64,000 nucleotides of DNA, from positions 54,312,001-54,376,000 of the forward strand of contig OZ024741.1 of the NCBI GenBank assembly GCA_964016885.1, in the 5' to 3' direction. The DNA comes from Eledone cirrhosa. Its lineage: Eukaryota. Numbering within the stretch: position 1 is the stretch's first letter; each line of letters opens with the position of its first letter. Under the pieces are notes generated by a model that made no database searches, was not told the DNA's origin, and saw only the letters and a program-made list of their open reading frames with translations. The translations under genes and the position numbers were made by a program. Below are positions 3,345 to 55,050 of this stretch, piece after piece.

Positions 3345-3830
3345 GTTTTCTTTTTATTCCTCTTTCTTTGATTCGTCAAAGTGGCATTATTGAAAAAATG
3401 AGAGGGACAATTCTTTAAAAAAAAGAGTTTTATAATATATGTAAAGTATATAAACTATTACCGGTTTTGATGTATTCGTAAAATTGATCTTAGTAGCAGA
3501 TTTTCAATATGAAGAAATACAACCATCAACACTACTGCTGCTACTACCACCTCACTCTATATACACAAGAGTTAATTTTACAGTCTCCTTCTCAACAAGG
3601 AAGATGAAAAACTTACCTCAATAGTTCTTTTTAAATTTTTAATTTTTTTTATCCCTATTAATTCTTGTTAATTGTAATACTCAACAATTGATAAGATGAA
3701 TTTTACTAATACATCGAAACCGCTAATACGTTACAGACAATATAAAACACTTTTTTTAAAAAGAATTGTCCCTCTCATGTTTTCAATAATATCACTTTGA
3801 CGAATCAAAGAAAGGGAAAAAAAACAAAAA
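3345..3830. repeat. Old foldback cassette with decayed HHR motifs
   Basis: 3361-3425 is the reverse complement of 3751-3816, and about 3452-3492 matches about 3693-3732. The right arm reads TTGATAA-GATG..CATC-GAAA-CCGC-TA. It is flanked by (TA)n and (CT)n(TA)n. Confidence 0.7.
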
Positions 3831-8868: not shown

Positions 8869-8937
<69 letters not shown>

Positions 8938-9157
8938 ATTAAGTTAAAAATGTACATCCACATATGTATACTGAAATACTAGTATGCATATGAATACACA
9001 CACGTATATATATGTAGATGTACCAAGTCTTTCACTGGTCACTTTACTGTGAGTGGCCAGCTATTCTGTATGTAAACACACAGACAAACCTGTTTTTAGA
9101 GTCATACTGGTTTTTGAGGAAACACCTTTCCTCTATTCTCCAGAAAGCCAGACGAGG

Positions 9158-9202
9158 AATATTGAACTAGTTTCGTTGTTGTTACAACTCATCAGCAATA
9201 TT
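9158..9202 (-). ncRNA. Minimal type-I hammerhead ribozyme
   Basis: Minus strand: AATATTG-CTGATGA-GTTG taacaa CAAC-GAAA-CTAG-TT-CAATATT. Stem I is 7 bp, stem II is 4 bp, and stem III has a palindromic loop. Confidence 0.88.
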
Positions 9203-9623
9203 TACCTATCTACCGGCCCTTCTGGAGAATCGTAAAAGCACATATCGTTATATGCTTTTTCTATGAAAATTAGTAGTGGGCAGACTAATTTGCATAGAGT
9301 GTGAGTACGTACCGGTTCAACGGAGACGATAAAAACAAATAACGAAACGAAATTAAATTTCGTTTCGTTTGTAACTCACTTTTGTATGACTGACGCTTAA
9401 ACAATTAAGTTAAAAATGTACATCCACATATGTATACTGAAATACTAGTATGCATATGAATACACACACGTATACATATGTAGATGTACCAAGTCTTTCA
9501 CTGGTCACTTTACTGTGAGTGGCCAGCTATTCTGTATGTAAACACACAGACAAACCGGTTTTTAGAGTCATACTGGTTTTTGAGGAAACACCTTTCCTCT
9601 ATTCTCCAGAAAGCCAGACAAGG

Positions 9624-9668
9624 AATATCGAACTAGTTTCGTTGTTGTTACAACTCATCAGCAATATT
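9624..9668 (-). ncRNA. Minimal type-I hammerhead ribozyme, second tandem copy
   Basis: Same as 9158-9202 except for one stem I change that leaves a G-U pair. Confidence 0.86.
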
Positions 9669-9697
9669 TACCTATCTACCGGCCCTTCTGGAGAATC

Positions 9698-9771
<74 letters not shown>

Positions 9772-9916
9772 AAACATTCGTCTCATTCTGACGTCACCAG
9801 CCCTGTTTTTCCACATGTGCGTTTTATTTTCATAATCACGCATGATGTTAAACTAGCCTGCTTTTAAATTCCCTTTTTGGCATATTAATCAGTGAGACCT
9901 TGGTTACCATGTTGAA

Positions 9917-9996
9917 CTCTGCTGATGAACGAAATCCAACAGTGACCATCCCCACTGAATGTTTTCGTGAAATAGTCTTTTCAAGACTATACAGAG
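9917..9996 (+). ncRNA. Type-I hammerhead ribozyme with a full stem III
   Basis: CTCTG-CTGATGA-ACGAAA..CAGTG..CACTG..TTTCGT-GAAA-TAGTCTT ttc AAGACTA-TA-CAGAG. All three stems pair. Confidence 0.85.
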
Positions 9997-10399
9997 CATT
10001 TGAAGTTGTCCCAAATTGAAGGATGAGTACTTTAGACTTTGTTTTATCATGAGTTAAGGCTTCATTGATTTTTCCCTGAATTTCTCTAAATTATGTTGGA
10101 TAAATCTATATCCTGATTCTTTTTAAATTGAGTTTGAATTATTTTTCCCATCTTTTATGTTAACTATTTTCCCGTTTTGACGTTATAGTCACTTATATAT
10201 TATGGAATACTGTTAGCTTCTCGCTACAACAATTTCTATACTTTTCATTTATATATATGTATATATGTGTGTATGTGTGTGTGTGGCTGTGGAGGGGGGT
10301 TGTATGCATATATATATATATACATATGTATGTATGTATATATACATATATATATGTTGCAACTTAATAAATACTTTTCTTTCTCCCTCTCTCCTTCCA

Positions 10400-10633: not shown

Positions 10634-11181
<548 letters not shown>

Positions 11182-25767: not shown

Positions 25768-28158
<2,391 letters not shown>

Positions 28159-28213: not shown

Positions 28214-28512
28214 TATAAAGAAAAAGAGATGAAATCGAAAATGCAACTGGAGTCTTATTTCTTTTTTTAAATATATATATTTATTTGGTTCCTTTACCGG
28301 TTTTGCAGTTCTTCTGCTTTTCAAAAGGTGAGTTGAGATGGAGGGTCTGTGGTTTTTCTCAGATGTGAGAAAAACCACAGACCCTCCATCTCAACTCACC
28401 TTTTGAAAAGCAGAAGAACTGCGAAACCGGTAAAGGAACCAAATAAATATATATATTTTAAAAAAAAATAAGACTCCAGTTGCATTTTCGATTTCATCTC
28501 TTTTTCTTTATA
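28214..28512. repeat. Foldback cassette with about 148-bp arms and a 4-nt spacer
   Basis: Centre TTTTTCTCA gatg TGAGAAAAA at 28362-28365. Flanked by (TA)n. A related single arm lies at about 55985-56160. Confidence 0.95.
28399..28436 (+). ncRNA. Minimal HHR with U3-A8 core variant
   Basis: CCTT-TTGAAAA-GCAG aagaa CTGC-GAAA-CCGG-TA-AAGG. The mirror copy at 28291-28328 has G12 changed to A. Confidence 0.75.
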
Positions 28513-28747
28513 TATATATATATATATATATTTCGTTTCTCAATTTGTTTAGTAAGATTCTTTATCTGAAAACGTGTGTTGAAACCGATATTGTTATACT
28601 TTGGGAGGGTCATGTTGCCAATAAGAAACATACGCACCAGCTGCTATCACTTCAATTTATTATAAATTAAATTTATAAATTTAAGTATTTATAAATTTGC
28701 TGTTGGTTGGTTGGTTGGTTCCACAACCGGACGGTTGTTCATATATT

Positions 28748-28790
28748 GTCAAAGTTCTTTCATCACACATTCTGTGACCTCTTCAGTGAC
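28748..28790 (-). ncRNA. Minimal HHR in the inverted pLTR
   Basis: Minus strand: GTCA-CTGAAGA-g-GTCACA gaatg TGTGAT-GAAA-GAAC-TT-TGAC. Confidence 0.7.
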
Positions 28791-29521
28791 TGGGGATTCT
28801 TCTCTTTGTTTTGTGCCTCTCCTTTGTTCTGTCCCACGCCTTCTTGTTTTTGTGTGTGTTGTGTGCTTAGTTTGCGTATGTGTTACATCCGGGTGTCTGT
28901 GTGTGTTTTTATTTGTTTATTTATTTGTTTATTTACATGTTACTGGTTGGATGTTTGTTCTATGTGTGTATGTGTGTGTGTAACTAAATAGTTAACTTAA
29001 ACTAAATATTAAGATAGTAGAAAGACCCGGTACCTCCATAAAAACACTTATTAGTAATAAATACCCTTTTCAAAGACCTCTCTGTATAGATAAGAAATGC
29101 ATAATCTGTAACCTAAGCCCCCATATTAACTGTAAAACTAGAAACATAGTATATAGCATAAGATGTACTGAAGGACAATGTAAAGATAAGAATATAGTGT
29201 ACATAGGTGAGACAGCTCGTAGTATAGGAGAACGATTAAATGAACACTAGCGAGAGCTTCAAGATAGAAAAGATTCATCAGTACTCCACCAACATGCTAA
29301 AATAGAACATAAGGGCAAATTAGAGAACATAGAAATAAAAATAAAATCTACATACAGAAAAGACGCAATGTTTAGACAAATCACAGAGGCAATAAACATG
29401 AATGAACTCCAACCAAAATTAAATAGAAAACATGAATGGAATAGCAACATCACAACTTACAATTAAGGAAAAAATGAAAGAGGCACACATGAGAGGCACA
29501 AAACAAAAAAAAGAACCCCCA

Positions 29522-29564
29522 GTCATTGAAGAGGTCACAGAATGTGTGACGAAAGAACTTTGAC
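29522..29564 (+). ncRNA. Minimal HHR in the 3' pLTR (C3 changed to U, probably inactive)
   Basis: GTCA-TTGAAGA-g-GTCACA gaatg TGTGAC-GAAA-GAAC-TT-TGAC. Confidence 0.62.
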
Positions 29565-30343
29565 ACTATATGAACAACCGTGGGAGGGAGGGATAGAGAG
29601 GGGGAGAGAGGGGGGGGAGATATAAAGAGATAAATATAAATATATATATGTATAAAAAATAAAGATAAAGATAAAAATGACAAAAATAAAAGCAAAGAAG
29701 GGGGTGAGAAAGAGGAAAAGAAAAGATAGCCAAGAAAGGGAGGGAAGGAAGGAAGAAAACGAAGAAATAGAAGAGGGGGATATATGTATTGGTTTTGTGG
29801 GTAATTAAAAGGGTTTAGATACAACAAGAGGGTATAAACTCTAAGTATATGCAGTTTGTCAGTTGGTAGTAAGAGGTTAAGGGTTCGATTTGTAGTGCGA
29901 ACACTTCTCTTTGAGTCTATGGTTACAATAAAACAATGAAACATTCCCAGTTATGTAACTACCCTTGCAAACAAGACCTGGCAACTGAGGGAAAGTAACC
30001 ATCAATACACCCTGAAGTTGAAAACATTATCGAACGCGCCCCCATATCGGAGTGGTATGAGATGCTATCGATTTTGCGACCTTGAGCTGTTCCACATCTT
30101 GAGTTCGAAGAATAAGTTACTCAAAAATAAAATCGAAAGATCAATTTATTGTAACCATAGACTCAAAGATTAGTAAATTCTTAAATTTATAAATTTAATT
30201 TATAATAAATTGAAGTGAAAGTAACTGGTGCGTGTGTTTCTTATTGGCAACATGACCCTCCCAAAGTATAACAATATATATATATATACGTGGAAAAGTA
30301 AGAAATCGGAGAATAGACCGTTAAAACATGTTTATTTAAAACA

Positions 30344-32751: not shown

Positions 32752-32972
32752 TTCACTGCTTTACTATCGTTTCTAGATGATAATAATACATTGTAGCTAT
32801 ACACCGTTATTGATCTGTGTAAGGTTAGTTACAAAATATCAGATAAAGAGAATATTTACTTACATGCATATCACCAGCTGTTTTCAAAAGCAATAACTAA
32901 CCTTACATAGATCAAAAACGGAGTATAGCTACAATGTATTATCATCATCTAGAAACGATCGTAAAGCAGTTA
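32752..32972. repeat. Foldback cassette with HHR 3' halves
   Basis: 32752-32831 is inverted at 32894-32972. The arms end in TAGAAACGATCGTA, as in the 25990 HHR family. Confidence 0.85.
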
Positions 32973-49768: not shown

Positions 49769-49813
<45 letters not shown>

Positions 49814-49817
<4 letters not shown>

Positions 49818-50183
49818 GATATTAACAAATGGAAACAATATTTATAAAACCATATTTATATCATTATACATATTTCAAGGACACCAAGTTAAATTATGGT
49901 TTGCTTTCATCAGATAAAATATAATATAGAGCAGTTTTATAAATAAATATTGACATACCCTTAAAGAATGCAACCATTACTGTTGGAAGCTCCCGGATAG
50001 TTCGGGAGCTTCCAACAGTAATGGTTGCATTCTTTAAAGGTATGTCAATATTTATTTATAAAACTGCTCTATATTATATTTTATCTGATGAAAGCAAACC
50101 ATAATTTAACTTGGTGTCCTTGAAATATGTATAATGAAATAAATATGGTTTTATAAATATAGTTTCCATTTGTTAATATCGTA
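49814..50183. repeat. Foldback cassette with about 181-bp arms and back-to-back HHRs
   Basis: Centre GCTCCCG gatagtt CGGGAGC at 49996-50002. Confidence 0.95.
50077..50141 (+). ncRNA. Type-I HHR (mirror copy at 49857-49921 on minus)
   Basis: TATTTTAT-CTGATGA-AAGCAAACCA..TGGTGTCCTT-GAAA-TATGTA-TA-ATGAAATA. Confidence 0.75.
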
Positions 50184-50355
50184 TTTTTACTTCAATTATT
50201 TGTTGAGTGCTTTATATCAGTTATAAAAATATTTGCTTGTTGTATCCCAACAATTTAAATAGAACTTTTACATATATATATATATATTTATATATATGTT
50301 ATTGAGTAAAATGACAGGAGGCTGGACTGGTGAAATTCCTTAAAGGTATATTATA

Positions 50356-50415
50356 AACACTATGCACGTTTCAATGACCGGGCTCTGCAAGGACCCGGTG
50401 ACATCATCAGATGTT
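50356..50415 (-). ncRNA. Type-I HHR
   Basis: Minus strand: AACAT-CTGATGA-..ACCGGG..CCCGGT..-GAAA-CGTGCA-TA-GTGTT. Confidence 0.7.
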
Positions 50416-50674
50416 ACTAAATTTATCTAATAAAGGAATATAATAATGGTAGACACAATCCAAGGGGCTGAAAAGTAGAGAGAAATGTTTAAGAACCGAA
50501 GGCGGCCAGAGCCAGCAGTTGCCAGCCTGGGTGACCGCCCTCAAGTGACTATGGTTGACTATACGAAATGACTGGTTCTATCCAGTGGTGAACCAACAAA
50601 CCTAAATGAATATATATATATATATATATAAATAAATTCAAAATATTAACAAAATAGATATTCTTGTGATGAAG

Positions 50675-50944
50675 TATATTTTATTATACATATTTCAGAG
50701 GTACTGAATTAACTTCGACAGTACGTCCTCATCAGATAAAATAAGATGATGCATTTCATACCCCGACATAGTAGATGGTTAAGATTCAGTCATGGTAGTA
50801 GATTAAATTAAGATTCAGTCATGGTAGACTACCATGACTGAATCTTAACCATCTACTATGTCAGGGTATGTCATGCATCATCTTATTTTATCTGATGAGG
50901 ACGTACTGTTAAAGTTAACTCAGTACCTCTGAAATATGTATAAT

Positions 50945-50952
<8 letters not shown>
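50675..50952. repeat. Foldback cassette with back-to-back HHRs
   Basis: Arms 50675-50798 and 50828-50952, with a 19-bp duplication at the centre. Confidence 0.93.
50884..50950 (+). ncRNA. Type-I HHR (mirror copy at 50677-50743 on minus)
   Basis: TATTTTAT-CTGATGA-GG..GTACTG..CAGTAC..CT-GAAA-TATGTA-TA-ATAAAATA. Confidence 0.8.
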
Positions 50953-50976
<24 letters not shown>

Positions 50977-50978
<2 letters not shown>

Positions 50979-51167
50979 AAAATCTATAATCCCGACAGCA
51001 GAGCTCAAGTCGTTTCGACAGCTATTTCTGAGTCCATAAATAGCCGTTGAAACGGCTTGAGATCTGCCGCCGGGGCTATACATTTTCCTATTACACACTC
51101 TACTACCCTAAGTATTGAGTACCCTGGTGCGTTATGGTCCATCATCTTCGTTACCACACCTCATTCG

Positions 51168-51168
<1 letters not shown>
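50977..51168 (+). mobile_element. Palindromic short element, copy A (B at 55171-55355, C at 55708-55930)
   Basis: A hairpin around GAAACGGCTTGAG followed by the shared tail CACTCTACTACCCTAAGTATTGAGTAC. Confidence 0.85.
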
Positions 51169-51216
<48 letters not shown>

Positions 51217-51298
51217 GTAGGAGGTGAGTTTTATTGTAGTACAATAAAGCAATGCAGATATCGGATAAGAAGCACTCTACAGTTTGTAGGACTGGAGT

Positions 51299-51636
51299 AT
51301 ATATAATATAAGATCAAAAGATGGTTAAAGGAGTTCTATGTATTTTATTATGCGCATTTCAAAAACAAACATCATCATGCAATAATATTTGTGTTTTCAT
51401 CAGATAAAACAGGAGAACATGATATGAAGGCTAAAAAACACTTGTGGATAGTGCAGTTGATTTGTGGATAATGCATATGTTGATTTAAAACTGCACTATC
51501 CACAAGTGTTTTTTAGCCTTCATATCATGTTCTCCTGTTTTATCTGATGAAAACACAAATATTATTGCATGATGATGTTTGTTTTTGAAATGCGCATAAT
51601 AAAATACATGGAACTCCTTTAACCATCTTTTGATCT

Positions 51637-51646
<10 letters not shown>
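51299..51646. repeat. Foldback cassette with about 160-bp arms and back-to-back HHRs
   Basis: 51299-51458 is the reverse complement of 51489-51646. Confidence 0.95.
51536..51606 (+). ncRNA. Type-I HHR (mirror copy at 51341-51411 on minus)
   Basis: TGTTTTAT-CTGATGA-AAACACAAATATTAT..ATGTTTGTTTTT-GAAA-TGCGCA-TA-ATAAAATA. Confidence 0.85.
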
Positions 51647-51676
<30 letters not shown>

Positions 51677-51687
51677 GATATTAAATT

Positions 51688-51758
51688 TTCCTTCTGATGA
51701 ACGACTTCAGACGTGTCTGTTGGGGTCGCCTGTCTTCGTGAAACCTTGGGTAATTGAA
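51688..51758 (+). ncRNA. HHR with eroded stem I, isolated between (TA)n tracts
   Basis: CTGATGA-ACGA..TCGT-GAAA-CCTTGGG-TA. It shares the stem II base with the 9917 motif. Confidence 0.6.
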
Positions 51759-52097
51759 TAATTGTATTGTGTTGTTTATTCCATAATTATATATATATAT
51801 ATATATATATATTGTTATACTTTGGGAGGGTCGTGCTGCCAATATGAAACAAAAGAAATCTCTCAAAATAAATTCAAAAGCAAATTATATATATATTAAC
51901 GCATTGAATCCCTTATCCAACCGTGGTTTATCCGATCCCCTCTGAAATCAATCCTTAATGATACTTGTATTTCGACAGCAACGATTAAAATTTGAACAAT
52001 AATTAAGCCACCCGCCGTTATTTTTACTATAGAATATAATTTAGAAACTGGGCATATAAGACCGGAAAAGGGAACACAAATGGAAACCAGGAAAAAA

Positions 52098-52265: not shown

Positions 52266-52277
52266 AATATATATATA

Positions 52278-53136
52278 CGAGGTGTGTCAGAAAAGTTCCA
52301 GGACTGATGTCACAAAAGATTTATTTCAAACCCAAACTTCACACTAAGAGTTTTCTCCTTCAAAGTAATCCCCCTGTAGTCTAATGCACTTTTCCATCCT
52401 TTTCTGCCACGCTTGCATGCACTCCTGGAAGGATTCTTCCGGGATCCTCCGCAGTTCCGTCGTCACGGCCTTTTTGATGTCGTCCACGTCTTCAAAACGG
52501 GTCCCCTCCGGGTCGTTCTCGAAGATCTATGACTCATCACTGGTGATGACTGGTTCGGTTTCAAGACGCTCGAGGATGTCCTGGCACACTTGCATGAGTC
52601 GACCCTTCTGGTCATCGTTCAGCAGTTTTGGCACCATCTTCGCGCAGACTTTCCGCATGTCCAAATCTTCAGTTAGAATCTTTCAGACGCTGTCCCGATT
52701 CATGCCCAGCTCATTTGCCATCAGTCGAACAGTCAGCTGACGATCGCTACGCACCATCTGTCTGACGCGCTCAACGTTGATCTCAGTCCTGGTTGTTGAG
52801 GGCCTTCCGCTCCTGGCGTCATCATCCACGTCCTCGCGTGACATCGTCTCATCTCCATACACTTGCTGCAGGAATCCCAGTGCTTCTGACGGAGTTTTCC
52901 CCAACCGTACCAGAAACTTCAAGTTTTTTCGTTGCTCTGTGCTAATTGCTTGACGACCTGAAACAGAGGACATGTATATAAAATTATGAAGAAAAAAGTT
53001 TGATCGCTGCAGAGAGCTAAGATTACAGTTACATACTCCAGGGGGATTACTTTGAAGGAGAAAACTCGTAGTGTGAAGTTTGGGTTTGAAATAAATCTTT
53101 TGTGACATCAGTTCTGGAACTTTTCTGACACACCTC

Positions 53137-53137
<1 letters not shown>
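52278..53137 (-). mobile_element. Internally deleted mariner with about 97-bp inverted ends and a TA target duplication
   Basis: TA-CGAGGTGTGTCAGAAAAG...CTTTTCTGACACACCTCG-TA. Transposase pieces include EQRKNLKF, DDARSGRPST, KMVPKLL and GDYFEG. Confidence 0.93.
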
Positions 53138-53205
<68 letters not shown>

Positions 53206-53212
53206 TATATAG

Positions 53213-53375
53213 GGCGGGTAAAATTCCCGAGATCTATGGACTAGATCTCTCCAATGGTCTTTGTCCCTTATCATCGATGACATGTCCTGCGTCTCCAAGA
53301 CCAGTATCTGTCCTTAGGCCATCAACATATGTCAACCTTCGTCTCCCTATTCTGGTGTGTCTATTCAGGGGTTCC
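53213..53375 (-). pseudogene. RTE-type LINE C-terminal fragment
   Basis: LTYVDGLR..ETQDMSSMIRDKDHWRDLV. Confidence 0.6.
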
Positions 53376-53377
53376 CA

Positions 53378-55050
53378 CAGTGTAGAATTTGGGCTCTCTC
53401 GTCTATAGTGTTAATCCAGAGTTCTGTGTCTAATACAGGTAGTCTATTGTTAGGGTGTTTGTAAGGGTAGTCGATAGTTACAGTTATACTCTGGTGTATG
53501 GAATTAGCTATCTGCTGGATGCTTTCCATTGTGCTACGTTCTAAATCAAACTTGTTAGTGCTCTCTTGTGGGGGTGTTCTTATTACTATATTGATATCGT
53601 CCACTCACACTATGCTAAACCCATGGCCTCCAAATACCTGATACTCAAAAACTCAGCAATGTCCAGTAGTGCTAAGTTTAATATTCTGATCGCAGACATG
53701 GTACGAGTGATGAAGAACGTGTCCCGCATGTGCGACCCAACAGAAATGGAAAGACACATCCAACACTTCATCAACCGCATGCAGTTCTCTGGCTACAACC
53801 AAAGAGACAGAATCAGAGTATACGAAGGAGCCACGGAGAAGTATAAGACCCTCATAGAACTGGAATTGAAAGGAATTTGCCCATTATACAGGAACAAATC
53901 ATGGAATAGCTTAGATAGGGCTAGACATAAGATAAGGAAAGCCACCTCATCGTACGACAACCAGAGATATCAGAGTGTCATGTTTGTGGATGCTACCCCT
54001 GGAGGGGAATTAGCTAACCAGTGTAGAAAGGCCCTGAGAAAGACCCACTTAAAGATTAAGGTGGTAGAAAAGCCAGGAACCACCATCAAATCCCTGATCA
54101 GCAAAACCTACCCTTTTAAGAAAACCCACTGTACTAATAGGAAATGTATCATATGTAAAGTAAACCCCCGGATAAACTGTAAAACTAGAAACATAGTCTA
54201 TAACATAAGATGTACAGAGGGTACTTGCAGAAACATGACAACAACATACATAGGCGAGACAGCTCATAGCATAGGTGAAAGGATAGACCAACACTGGGGC
54301 GAACTAAAAGGACGAAAAAATGGTTCAGTACTATACGAACATGCCAGACAACAACACGACGGTAAGATAGACAACATAGAAATTAGAATAATATCTAAAC
54401 ATAGAAATGACCCAGAAGATAGGCAAATCAGAGAGGCCAGTGAAATAGAACTTAGAAGGCCAAGGCTAAACAGAAAAAATGAATGGAATAACAACAACAC
54501 CCAAACAAACAACACTGACCTAAGAGAAGTATAAATGAATAAATAAATAAATAAATAGATAAATAAATAAATACATACACAAGCCCAATAATAACAAACA
54601 CATATAAACACACACTAGTAAAGATAGAATACATTAACCAATACACAGTCACCCAAACACGAACACACATCAAACAAAACACGATACACACACCGCAAAC
54701 GCATGCGCAAAGAAGACAAAAAAATAAACAAATGAATAAATATATAAAAAGACTAAATAAAGATGGCGTAGACATACAATGCAAAGGGAGGAAACAATAG
54801 CACCACTGACGATGTTGCAGATGTGCAACGAAAGAACTTTGATAGACTATATGTATGTGTTTGTGTCTATATTGTATCTGTATTTTTTACCGTTGGTCAG
54901 TCAATGGCAACATTGAGGACCGAATAAATTAAATTAACCGATATAAAAGACACAGAAGCGAAAAGCGAAAACCAACCAAACAGTGAGTGTGTTCTGTTAT
55001 TAATTCTGGCAATATTACACAAATATGACCCTCCCCAAGTATAACAATAT
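53378..55050 (+). mobile_element. PLE with inverted 5' RT segment, open thumb and GIY-YIG region, and 3' pLTR
   Basis: Minus 53378-53604: DDINIV..TIDYP..LPVLD. Plus 53601-54534: HYAKPMAS..RMQFSGY..CIIC..NIVYNIRC..YIGETAHSIGERIDQH..RQIREA..LNRKNEW. The pLTR ends in GACCCTCCCCAAGTATAACAA, as at 30253-30276. Confidence 0.92.
54801..54845 (+). ncRNA. Minimal HHR in the PLE 3' pLTR
   Basis: CA-CTGACGA-t-GTTGCA gatg TGCAAC-GAAA-GAAC-TT-TG. Stem II differs from 29522 by compensatory changes. Confidence 0.7.

Follow-up and report, generated by a model that had tools for sequence, protein, structure and literature searches.

Three palindromic cassettes are flanked by (TA)n tracts and carry hammerhead ribozymes

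Within the window, by which we mean the whole 64,000-nucleotide stretch of Eledone cirrhosa DNA that was analysed, three palindromes lie where the original prediction had placed them, each formed by a pair of inverted arms: 49809-49995 and 50003-50189 in cassette 1 (97% complementary), 50675-50799 and 50828-50952 in cassette 2 (95%), and 51298-51458 and 51489-51649 in cassette 3 (99%). The same prediction had each palindrome bounded directly by (TA)n, which did not hold for cassettes 1 and 3 at the borders given for them, where one of the two arms extends ~88 nt further before reaching (TA)n and an element-derived tail thus intervenes on one side (50185-50272 and 51215-51302, respectively). 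In the following list of features, E1 and E2 denote the two insertion ends, and the tail is the segment from E1 to E2.

49814-50272: cassette 1, family 1, head-to-head pLTR arms with a right-hand tail, in (TA)n
49814-50001, minus strand: tail-less arm of cassette 1, from the family's fixed 5' A (50001) to E1 in (TA)n
50003-50184, plus strand: tailed arm of cassette 1 up to E1, its 5' start 6 nt downstream of the fixed 5' end
50185-50272, plus strand: family-1 tail, E1 to E2
50189-50212, plus strand: RCTC..GAGYGCTT-type element in the family-1 tail, the first half of this copy being ACTT
50630-50952: cassette 2, family 2, tail-less (exception to the one-tail rule)
50800-50827: centre of cassette 2, filler and a re-copied piece of the left arm
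51215-51644: cassette 3, family 3, left arm tailed, right arm tail-less, in (TA)n
51215-51302, minus strand: family-3 tail, E1 to E2
51270-51298, minus strand: ACTC..GAGTGCTT element in the family-3 tail
51303-51458, minus strand: tailed arm of cassette 3, its 5' start 14 nt downstream of the fixed 5' end
51459-51474: centre of cassette 3, a 16-nt filler made largely of short pieces re-copied from both arms
51475-51644, plus strand: tail-less arm of cassette 3, from the fixed A (51475, the putative transcription start) to E1

In cassette 2 both arms start at the fixed A (50799 and 50828); the left arm reaches E1 (~50630, ~44 nt further), and the right arm ends ~44 nt before it.

As predicted, a type-I hammerhead with an intact core is present on both arms of every palindrome. 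These six ribozymes share CUGAUGA, GAAA, UA^ and a self-complementary helix III (ATATGTAT or ATGCGCAT), and stem I comprises 8 bp, as against 4 bp in the mutated left arm of cassette 1.

49857-49921, minus strand: hammerhead of cassette 1, a single change breaking stem I; predicted cut after 49865
50077-50141, plus strand: hammerhead of cassette 1, helix III ATATGTAT; predicted cut after 50133
50677-50743, minus strand: hammerhead of cassette 2; predicted cut after 50685
50884-50950, plus strand: hammerhead of cassette 2; predicted cut after 50942
51341-51411, minus strand: hammerhead of cassette 3, helix III ATGCGCAT; predicted cut after 51349
51536-51606, plus strand: hammerhead of cassette 3; predicted cut after 51598

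Using a hammerhead descriptor, we obtained nine matches in the window, six of them in the cassettes, compared with a mean of 0.1 and a maximum of 2 in 100 local dinucleotide shuffles, so that the motif is not at the frequency of shuffled controls. The 150 Rfam matches listed, out of 186, included none of the six and were dominated by microRNA hairpin noise. The expectation that a transcript would carry a ribozyme together with its own antisense agrees with the predicted folding of the whole-palindrome RNA, in which the ribozyme core would be sequestered (predicted unpaired probability at most 0.001).

The arms are the pLTRs of autonomous Penelope-like elements

The arms are the pLTRs of three ORF-bearing, autonomous Penelope-like (RT + GIY-YIG) families. 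Long members of family 3 contain an 821-aa open frame (L031) with a YRDD RT motif and, at the C terminus, a GIY-YIG-like LIY..YFG, and families 1 and 2 continue into an ORF related to it (L238 and all 15 fetched family-1 loci). The 821-aa ORF carries RWT at position 58, DKT at 144, CNCRIKNKC (CxCx5C) at 680, CNLC (CxxC) at 780 and CLH (CxH) at 808, and a motif search found neither DKG nor Cx2-5CxxC in it. Insertion into (TA)n, a criterion for the Hydra clade, was seen at the family loci examined; together with the motif signature it would place the three families in the Hydra clade of EN+ PLEs. In the window itself, a fragment related to the parent ORF gave a weak Pfam GIY-YIG match (E 0.027, under the cut-off), and Pfam returned no confident PLE match for seven window ORFs. 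Of the description of the cassettes as ORF-less, ribozyme-only PLE derivatives, the PLE origin was thus upheld, while a separate ribozyme-only class was not.

Genome counts were taken from exact 24-26-nt arm patterns in the 3.0-Gb genome, with the reversed patterns as control. The patterns matched 12,029 times for cassette 3, 4,159 times for cassette 2 and 26 times for cassette 1, and the reversed controls gave no match. The head-to-head polarity reported for the cassettes was recovered on this scale: among the first 100 family-3 matches, 33 of the 36 neighbours no more than 6 kb apart are divergent, at spacings of 133 to 5,018 bp, as are 12 of 16 neighbours in family 2. Since divergent spacing extends to ~5 kb and long members bear the ORF, the palindromes are the shortest insertions of the autonomous families, that is, the short end of a continuum. 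Partial-tandem pLTR junctions occur at L036, L037, L112, L113 and L238, and inverted copies and a tail are present too. At L036:1248-1807, we also noted a 111-bp unit of which the downstream tandem unit has about five copies in its 3' UTR and the upstream unit a single copy.

Two other identities for the cassettes were rejected. A MITE or foldback DNA element does not suit asymmetric ends, variable centres and lengths continuous with those of ORF-bearing copies, and a retrozyme identity, which calls for head-to-tail hammerhead units, was abandoned because the cassettes are head-to-head pairs and the neighbours are, in 33 of 36 cases, divergent.

Most two-ended insertions have two different ends and, probably, separately templated arms

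In family 3 the end of an insertion is either E1 (reference 3639-3642) or E2 (3730). The insertions sampled lie for the most part at the beginning of contig C1. One E1 end is paired with one E2 end, ~90 nt apart, in 80 of the 84 that are two-ended, so that only one arm is tailed. For family 3, a tally by hand of 65 insertions from the first 100 matches comprised 12 single-ended, one ambiguous and 52 two-ended cases, and 50 of these 52 pair E1 with E2 (binomial p 6e-13). The pairing was seen in 16 of 16 family-2 insertions with both ends detected, two of which may be one duplication (among 36 loci), and in 14 of 16 family-1 insertions (among 23 loci). The exceptions are E1/E1 at L035, at L082 and once in L089, and E2/E2 at L125 and in a neighbour within L049 that lay outside the query set; cassette 2 of the window, which has no tail, is a further exception beyond the 16 of 16.

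The arms of one insertion often do not contain one another. In at least 24 of 50 E1/E2 insertions of family 3 the tailed arm is more than 15 nt shorter on its 5' side, and at L108, L111, L119, L124 and L139 the short inverted arm consists of tail only. Cassettes 1 and 3 are themselves non-nested; in cassette 3 the left arm has the tail and the right arm an additional 14 nt at its 5' side. An arm made by snap-back must be a sub-sequence of the first arm, and as at least 24 of 50 insertions break this containment, the two arms were most likely templated separately. The snap-back during insertion that the original prediction had put forward is therefore not the general mechanism. Both arms of an insertion are from the same subfamily: in 39 of 41 pairs of opposed arms we counted 0-1 differences over 18 variant columns, compared with a between-locus mean of 6.4, and one outlier proved to be two separate insertions. 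Such near-identity is explained equally well by a single RNA, by two RNAs from one source or by gene conversion at a later stage.

Short arms begin at a fixed A that is often preceded by an extra G

Short arms of each family begin at one fixed, Inr-like A. In family 3, the base directly 5' of this A differs from the reference in 4,262 of 11,147 exact arm matches, whereas the same count is 39 at the ribozyme cut site and 34 at a control site; among 60 loci with a non-reference base before the A, none was a read-through copy with a point change. The ribozyme cut was accordingly rejected as the main 5' end, being ~100-fold rarer. Fold junctions of family 3 showed the same preference, 1,939 being centred on the fixed A, one on the control and 89 near helix III. 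In short-read contigs, which are family-level rather than locus-specific and may derive from a run on the assembly's own sample, 13 of the 15 joints listed fall on 51474-51475, from many different left positions. In family 2, TATAAAT lies 31 nt upstream of TCACT; a clear TATA box at -30 is missing from family 3.

The base before the fixed A is G in 2,111 matches as against A in ~410 (19 of the 100 listed). An untemplated G was found at 7 of 13 start-site arms and at 8 of 56 other arms (p 0.005), some of these calls being uncertain at BLAST boundaries, and all seven one-base centres among the first 50 fold junctions are a G-C pair, which could also be a templated C at -1. In other retroelements the cap can be copied as a G by reverse transcription. 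From the fixed A and the G preceding it we infer that reverse transcription likely ran off the capped end of a transcript that was sense and uncleaved, with start site and cap both deduced from the genomic copies. A slight excess at the cut site, where 18 of 30 5' ends were true as compared with 5 of 30 at a single control site (p 0.001), hints that a minority of templates were ribozyme-cut.

In tandem copies at L036, L112, L320 and L322-L324, the upstream units run 5' past the putative start site. Since they extend beyond it, their templates were not start-site monomers; tandem read-through or a circular RNA would fit as template for such copies.

A repeated element lies just downstream of both ends

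In all three families, both E1 and E2 sit just 5' of an RCTC..GAGYGCTT element. The E1 copy has ACTC ~4-12 nt 3' of E1, followed 12-17 nt on by GAGTGCTT, and the E2 copy has GCTC, followed 10 nt on by GAGCGCTT; the halves read ACTC/GAGT after E1 and GCTC/GAGC after E2 throughout the three families, so that the first pair changes from A-U to G-C. The E2 copy of family 1 was predicted from families 2 and 3 and then found (42 matches, control 0), and all 15 of its fetched loci continue into the ORF. In two of four family-3 tandem copies the E2 element has GAAC rather than GAGC, and the repeated element did not form a stable hairpin when longer contexts were folded by MFE. The element may serve as a landing pad for the RT, by analogy with PAc, whose internal starts depend on RNA lying 3' of them.

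Other loci in the window

Five further loci had been credited with the same arm polarity. Only 28214-28512 passes the hammerhead descriptor, as a U3-A8 variant on one arm. The locus at 25805-28046 holds ORF remnants and so is not ORF-less; 28591-30276 includes a 450-nt stretch with 71% similarity to part of the ORF at 53545-54534; and 3345-3830 and 32752-32972 are decayed palindromes (82% and 78%) with no hammerhead passing the descriptor.

Several side observations belong here. The 28214-28512 locus, together with L032, L108, L109, L138, L310 and others, represents a fourth high-copy family with the core UUGAAAA (U3-A8, not C3-G8) and helix III ACCGGT; this core is found in most of 28 arms examined, often as palindromes. 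The 25805-28046 locus is a longer Hydra-like copy of another family, with a hammerhead stem II of ~100 nt by eye and a tail containing ATTC..GAGTTCTT, which resembles the repeated element. At 8937-9700, two head-to-tail units 466 bp apart lie between (TA)n tracts, and both contain a type-I hammerhead (Rfam match to HH9 at E about 1e-5, under the gathering score); they are retrozyme-like or a PLE tandem. Solo hammerheads of a different build, with a long stable helix III, are present at 9910-10005, which passes the descriptor, and at 51690-51760, which is without stem I. The palindrome at 10634-11181 (274-nt arms, 97%) has at its centre a (TA)n tract bordered by (CT)n/(AG)n, the reverse of the cassette layout. 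The 329-aa frame at 53545-54534 resembles, with its Cys-rich linker and YIGET, the C-terminal half of a PLE from a different clade and has no Pfam match, and 52267-53240 holds a mariner-like transposase fragment (HTH_48, E 0.002) with a 114-nt inverted pair (97%).

Probable two-ended priming, and the alternatives to it

We consider it probable that the palindromes are stubs that arise at a cut (TA)n tract, each of its two DNA ends priming separately on sense RNA and the resulting cDNAs being joined head to head. The GIY-YIG endonuclease would nick both strands of the self-complementary (TA)n tract, after which one 3'-OH would prime at E1 and the other at E2, assisted by a TA microhomology of a few nucleotides, each RT start being set by the element that closely follows it downstream. 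Where the 5'-most pLTR is the priming site and the transcript is capped and uncleaved, run-off arms of ~170 and ~260 nt would result; priming in a downstream pLTR would give the long copies. The run-off cDNA would sometimes end with the cap copied as G, and the cDNA ends would anneal through a short self-complementary sequence (ATAT, ATGCGCAT) or be joined by filler; the centres of the first 50 fold junctions are ATAT in 21 cases, AT in six and one G-C pair in seven, or filler. The stubs are likely dead ends, since they are without the upstream TATA box (family 2) and without the E2 element, and their ribozyme is predicted to be self-paired in the whole-palindrome RNA.

A more far-reaching version, which we offer tentatively and regard as possible rather than probable, is that in Hydra-clade PLEs a duplicated RNA landing pad sets two RT starts ~90 nt apart and an RT dimer extends both double-strand-cut ends on one RNA. 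Since on this reading no insertion extends as far as the last landing pad, the products of linear capped transcripts would for the most part be palindromic stubs that are dead; the template for productive copies would have to be a tandem or be circularised by the hammerhead. If this were true, a single scheme would explain the tail and the inverted pLTR as well as why the ribozyme is retained.

The original prediction had suggested a recurrent non-autonomous class, and recurrence was borne out by the 1,939 palindromes of one family. Mobilisation in trans of short pLTR-only transcripts or of the palindromes themselves, in the manner of a SINE or retrozyme, would account for ~1,900 stubs with a fixed 5' end in a single family and for the promoter kept in many truncated copies; pLTRs alone were enough for trans mobilisation in a rotifer (PMC3846280), and retrozymes are reported as pLTR-derived (bioRxiv 10.64898/2026.07.22.740005). 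However, when 97 short and 66 read-through arms of family 3 are compared, short arms have no private variant at any of 20 common variant columns, the alleles in the table of these 163 arms being common to both groups, with frequencies that differ at some columns. Moreover, centres vary between copies, and the single recurrent centre was found in two subfamilies; spacing runs from 133 bp to 5 kb; and genomic copies end at or before E2, hence without the element downstream of E2. A self-propagating non-autonomous family, for which the family-3 arms were examined, was therefore rejected, and we regard trans mobilisation of this kind as unlikely.

Within the same two-ended priming, the fixed 5' end might instead be a strong RT pause or an RNA processing site. 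The lack of a clear TATA box at -30 in family 3 would suit such a site, and the fixed end lies on a CATATG palindrome that could favour joining. We nevertheless hold it to be rather improbable, because all three families have the Inr-like A, family 2 has its TATA at -31, the G excess is confined to the fixed 5' site, and arms joined to unrelated positions still start at the fixed A.

Snap-back or self-priming, in which one cDNA or antisense template folds on a short palindrome and copies itself back, has been argued for from such palindromes (PMC3846280), and it would explain why the arms are near-identical and why self-complementary centres are favoured (ATAT in 21 of 50, and many ATGCGCAT centres). 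Taken one by one, the stubs that are symmetric about a perfect ATAT (21 of the first 50) are compatible with snap-back from the tailed arm. As a general route, however, it is refuted by the non-nested arms, some of which share no sequence at all; in addition, some centres have a separate G on each arm, and the fixed end with its extra G suits a sense, capped template. We thus judge it to have little chance of accounting for the palindromes as a whole, the symmetric subset remaining compatible with it.

An assembly artefact from fold-back long reads, or a later rearrangement, is highly improbable, since the arms are 95-99% alike, asymmetric and end at element-specific sites, and inverted joints onto the same base are present in short-read contigs, although the inverted duplication in which the E1/E1 locus L136 lies is more than 3.3 kb long and takes in the flanks as well. 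That locus (G000:C1:35310000-35319900), a family-3 copy with two E1 ends, has duplicated halves that are 99% alike, and its inverted duplication is a later fold-back or an assembly error.

Two-ended priming bears on how PLEs insert, as thousands of young copies give a countable answer, namely two separately primed arms, likely made on a capped sense RNA, and the short RNA elements named here can be mutated in an assay like the PAc one. For annotation, ~1,900 palindromes of a single family that look like MITEs are to be assigned to a PLE rather than to a DNA transposon or a novel class of ribozyme.

Comparison with known systems

In twin priming of L1, two DNA 3' ends prime on the RNA and give an inverted 5' part; the 3' end is not duplicated in the products, and the second primer site is opportunistic. 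In the stubs, by contrast, both priming sites are fixed and the arms overlap.

Among EN+ PLE insertions, partial tandems, an adjacent inverted 5'-truncated copy, a tail at one end and targeting of (TA)n have been published, and the origin of inverted pLTRs with a one-sided tail was named there as an open question (PMC8557442). Head-to-head PLE repeats have been ascribed to self-priming on an antisense template, the choice between sense and antisense template being left open (PMC3846280); our data argue against that 2013 antisense self-priming reading. The elements of these two reports share with ours the head-to-head pLTRs, the tail at one end, the pLTR hammerhead and the (TA)n target, but the tail is ~88-90 nt here and 30-40 nt in theirs. 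Inverted pLTRs, tails and (TA)n targeting are thus already published, and what is added here is the counted one-tail rule, the fixed, putatively cap-type end and the repeated element. In literature titles and abstract openings we found no statement for PLEs of a counted one-tail rule, two-ended priming, the cap-G or the repeated element, and subscription papers on Penelope tails and promoters, or supplementary figures, may hold such statements.

With the Hydra clade (PMC8557442) our families share RW(K/T), DKT, the CxCx5C linker, CxxC, CxH, a canonical hammerhead and (TA)n, and they differ in a family-3 unit of ~3.7 kb, compared with 'generally <3 kb', and in having RWT rather than RWK. Dimer-type hammerheads with a short palindromic helix III have been described for PLE pLTRs (PMC4209133), and the cassette hammerheads match that architecture. 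A TATA box with a TCACT-type initiator, described for the rotifer pLTR of Pen2a_Av (PMC3846280), is likewise found in family 2. Non-LTR retrozymes (PMC7229834; bioRxiv 10.64898/2026.07.22.740005) resemble the stubs in being ORF-less and PLE-derived with a type-I hammerhead; they form head-to-tail tandems, however, whereas the stubs are head-to-head (33 of 36 divergent) and have no lineage of their own.

For the Poseidon element PAc, both strands were cut and extended in vitro, and two internal RT starts define the tail; uncleaved RNA was the main template, and RNA 3' of the start was required (PMC11167929). Two-strand cutting and extension, and RT starts that bracket the tail, fit the scheme proposed here, but PAc belongs to another clade, and the use of the two starts by opposite strands in one insertion is our proposal.
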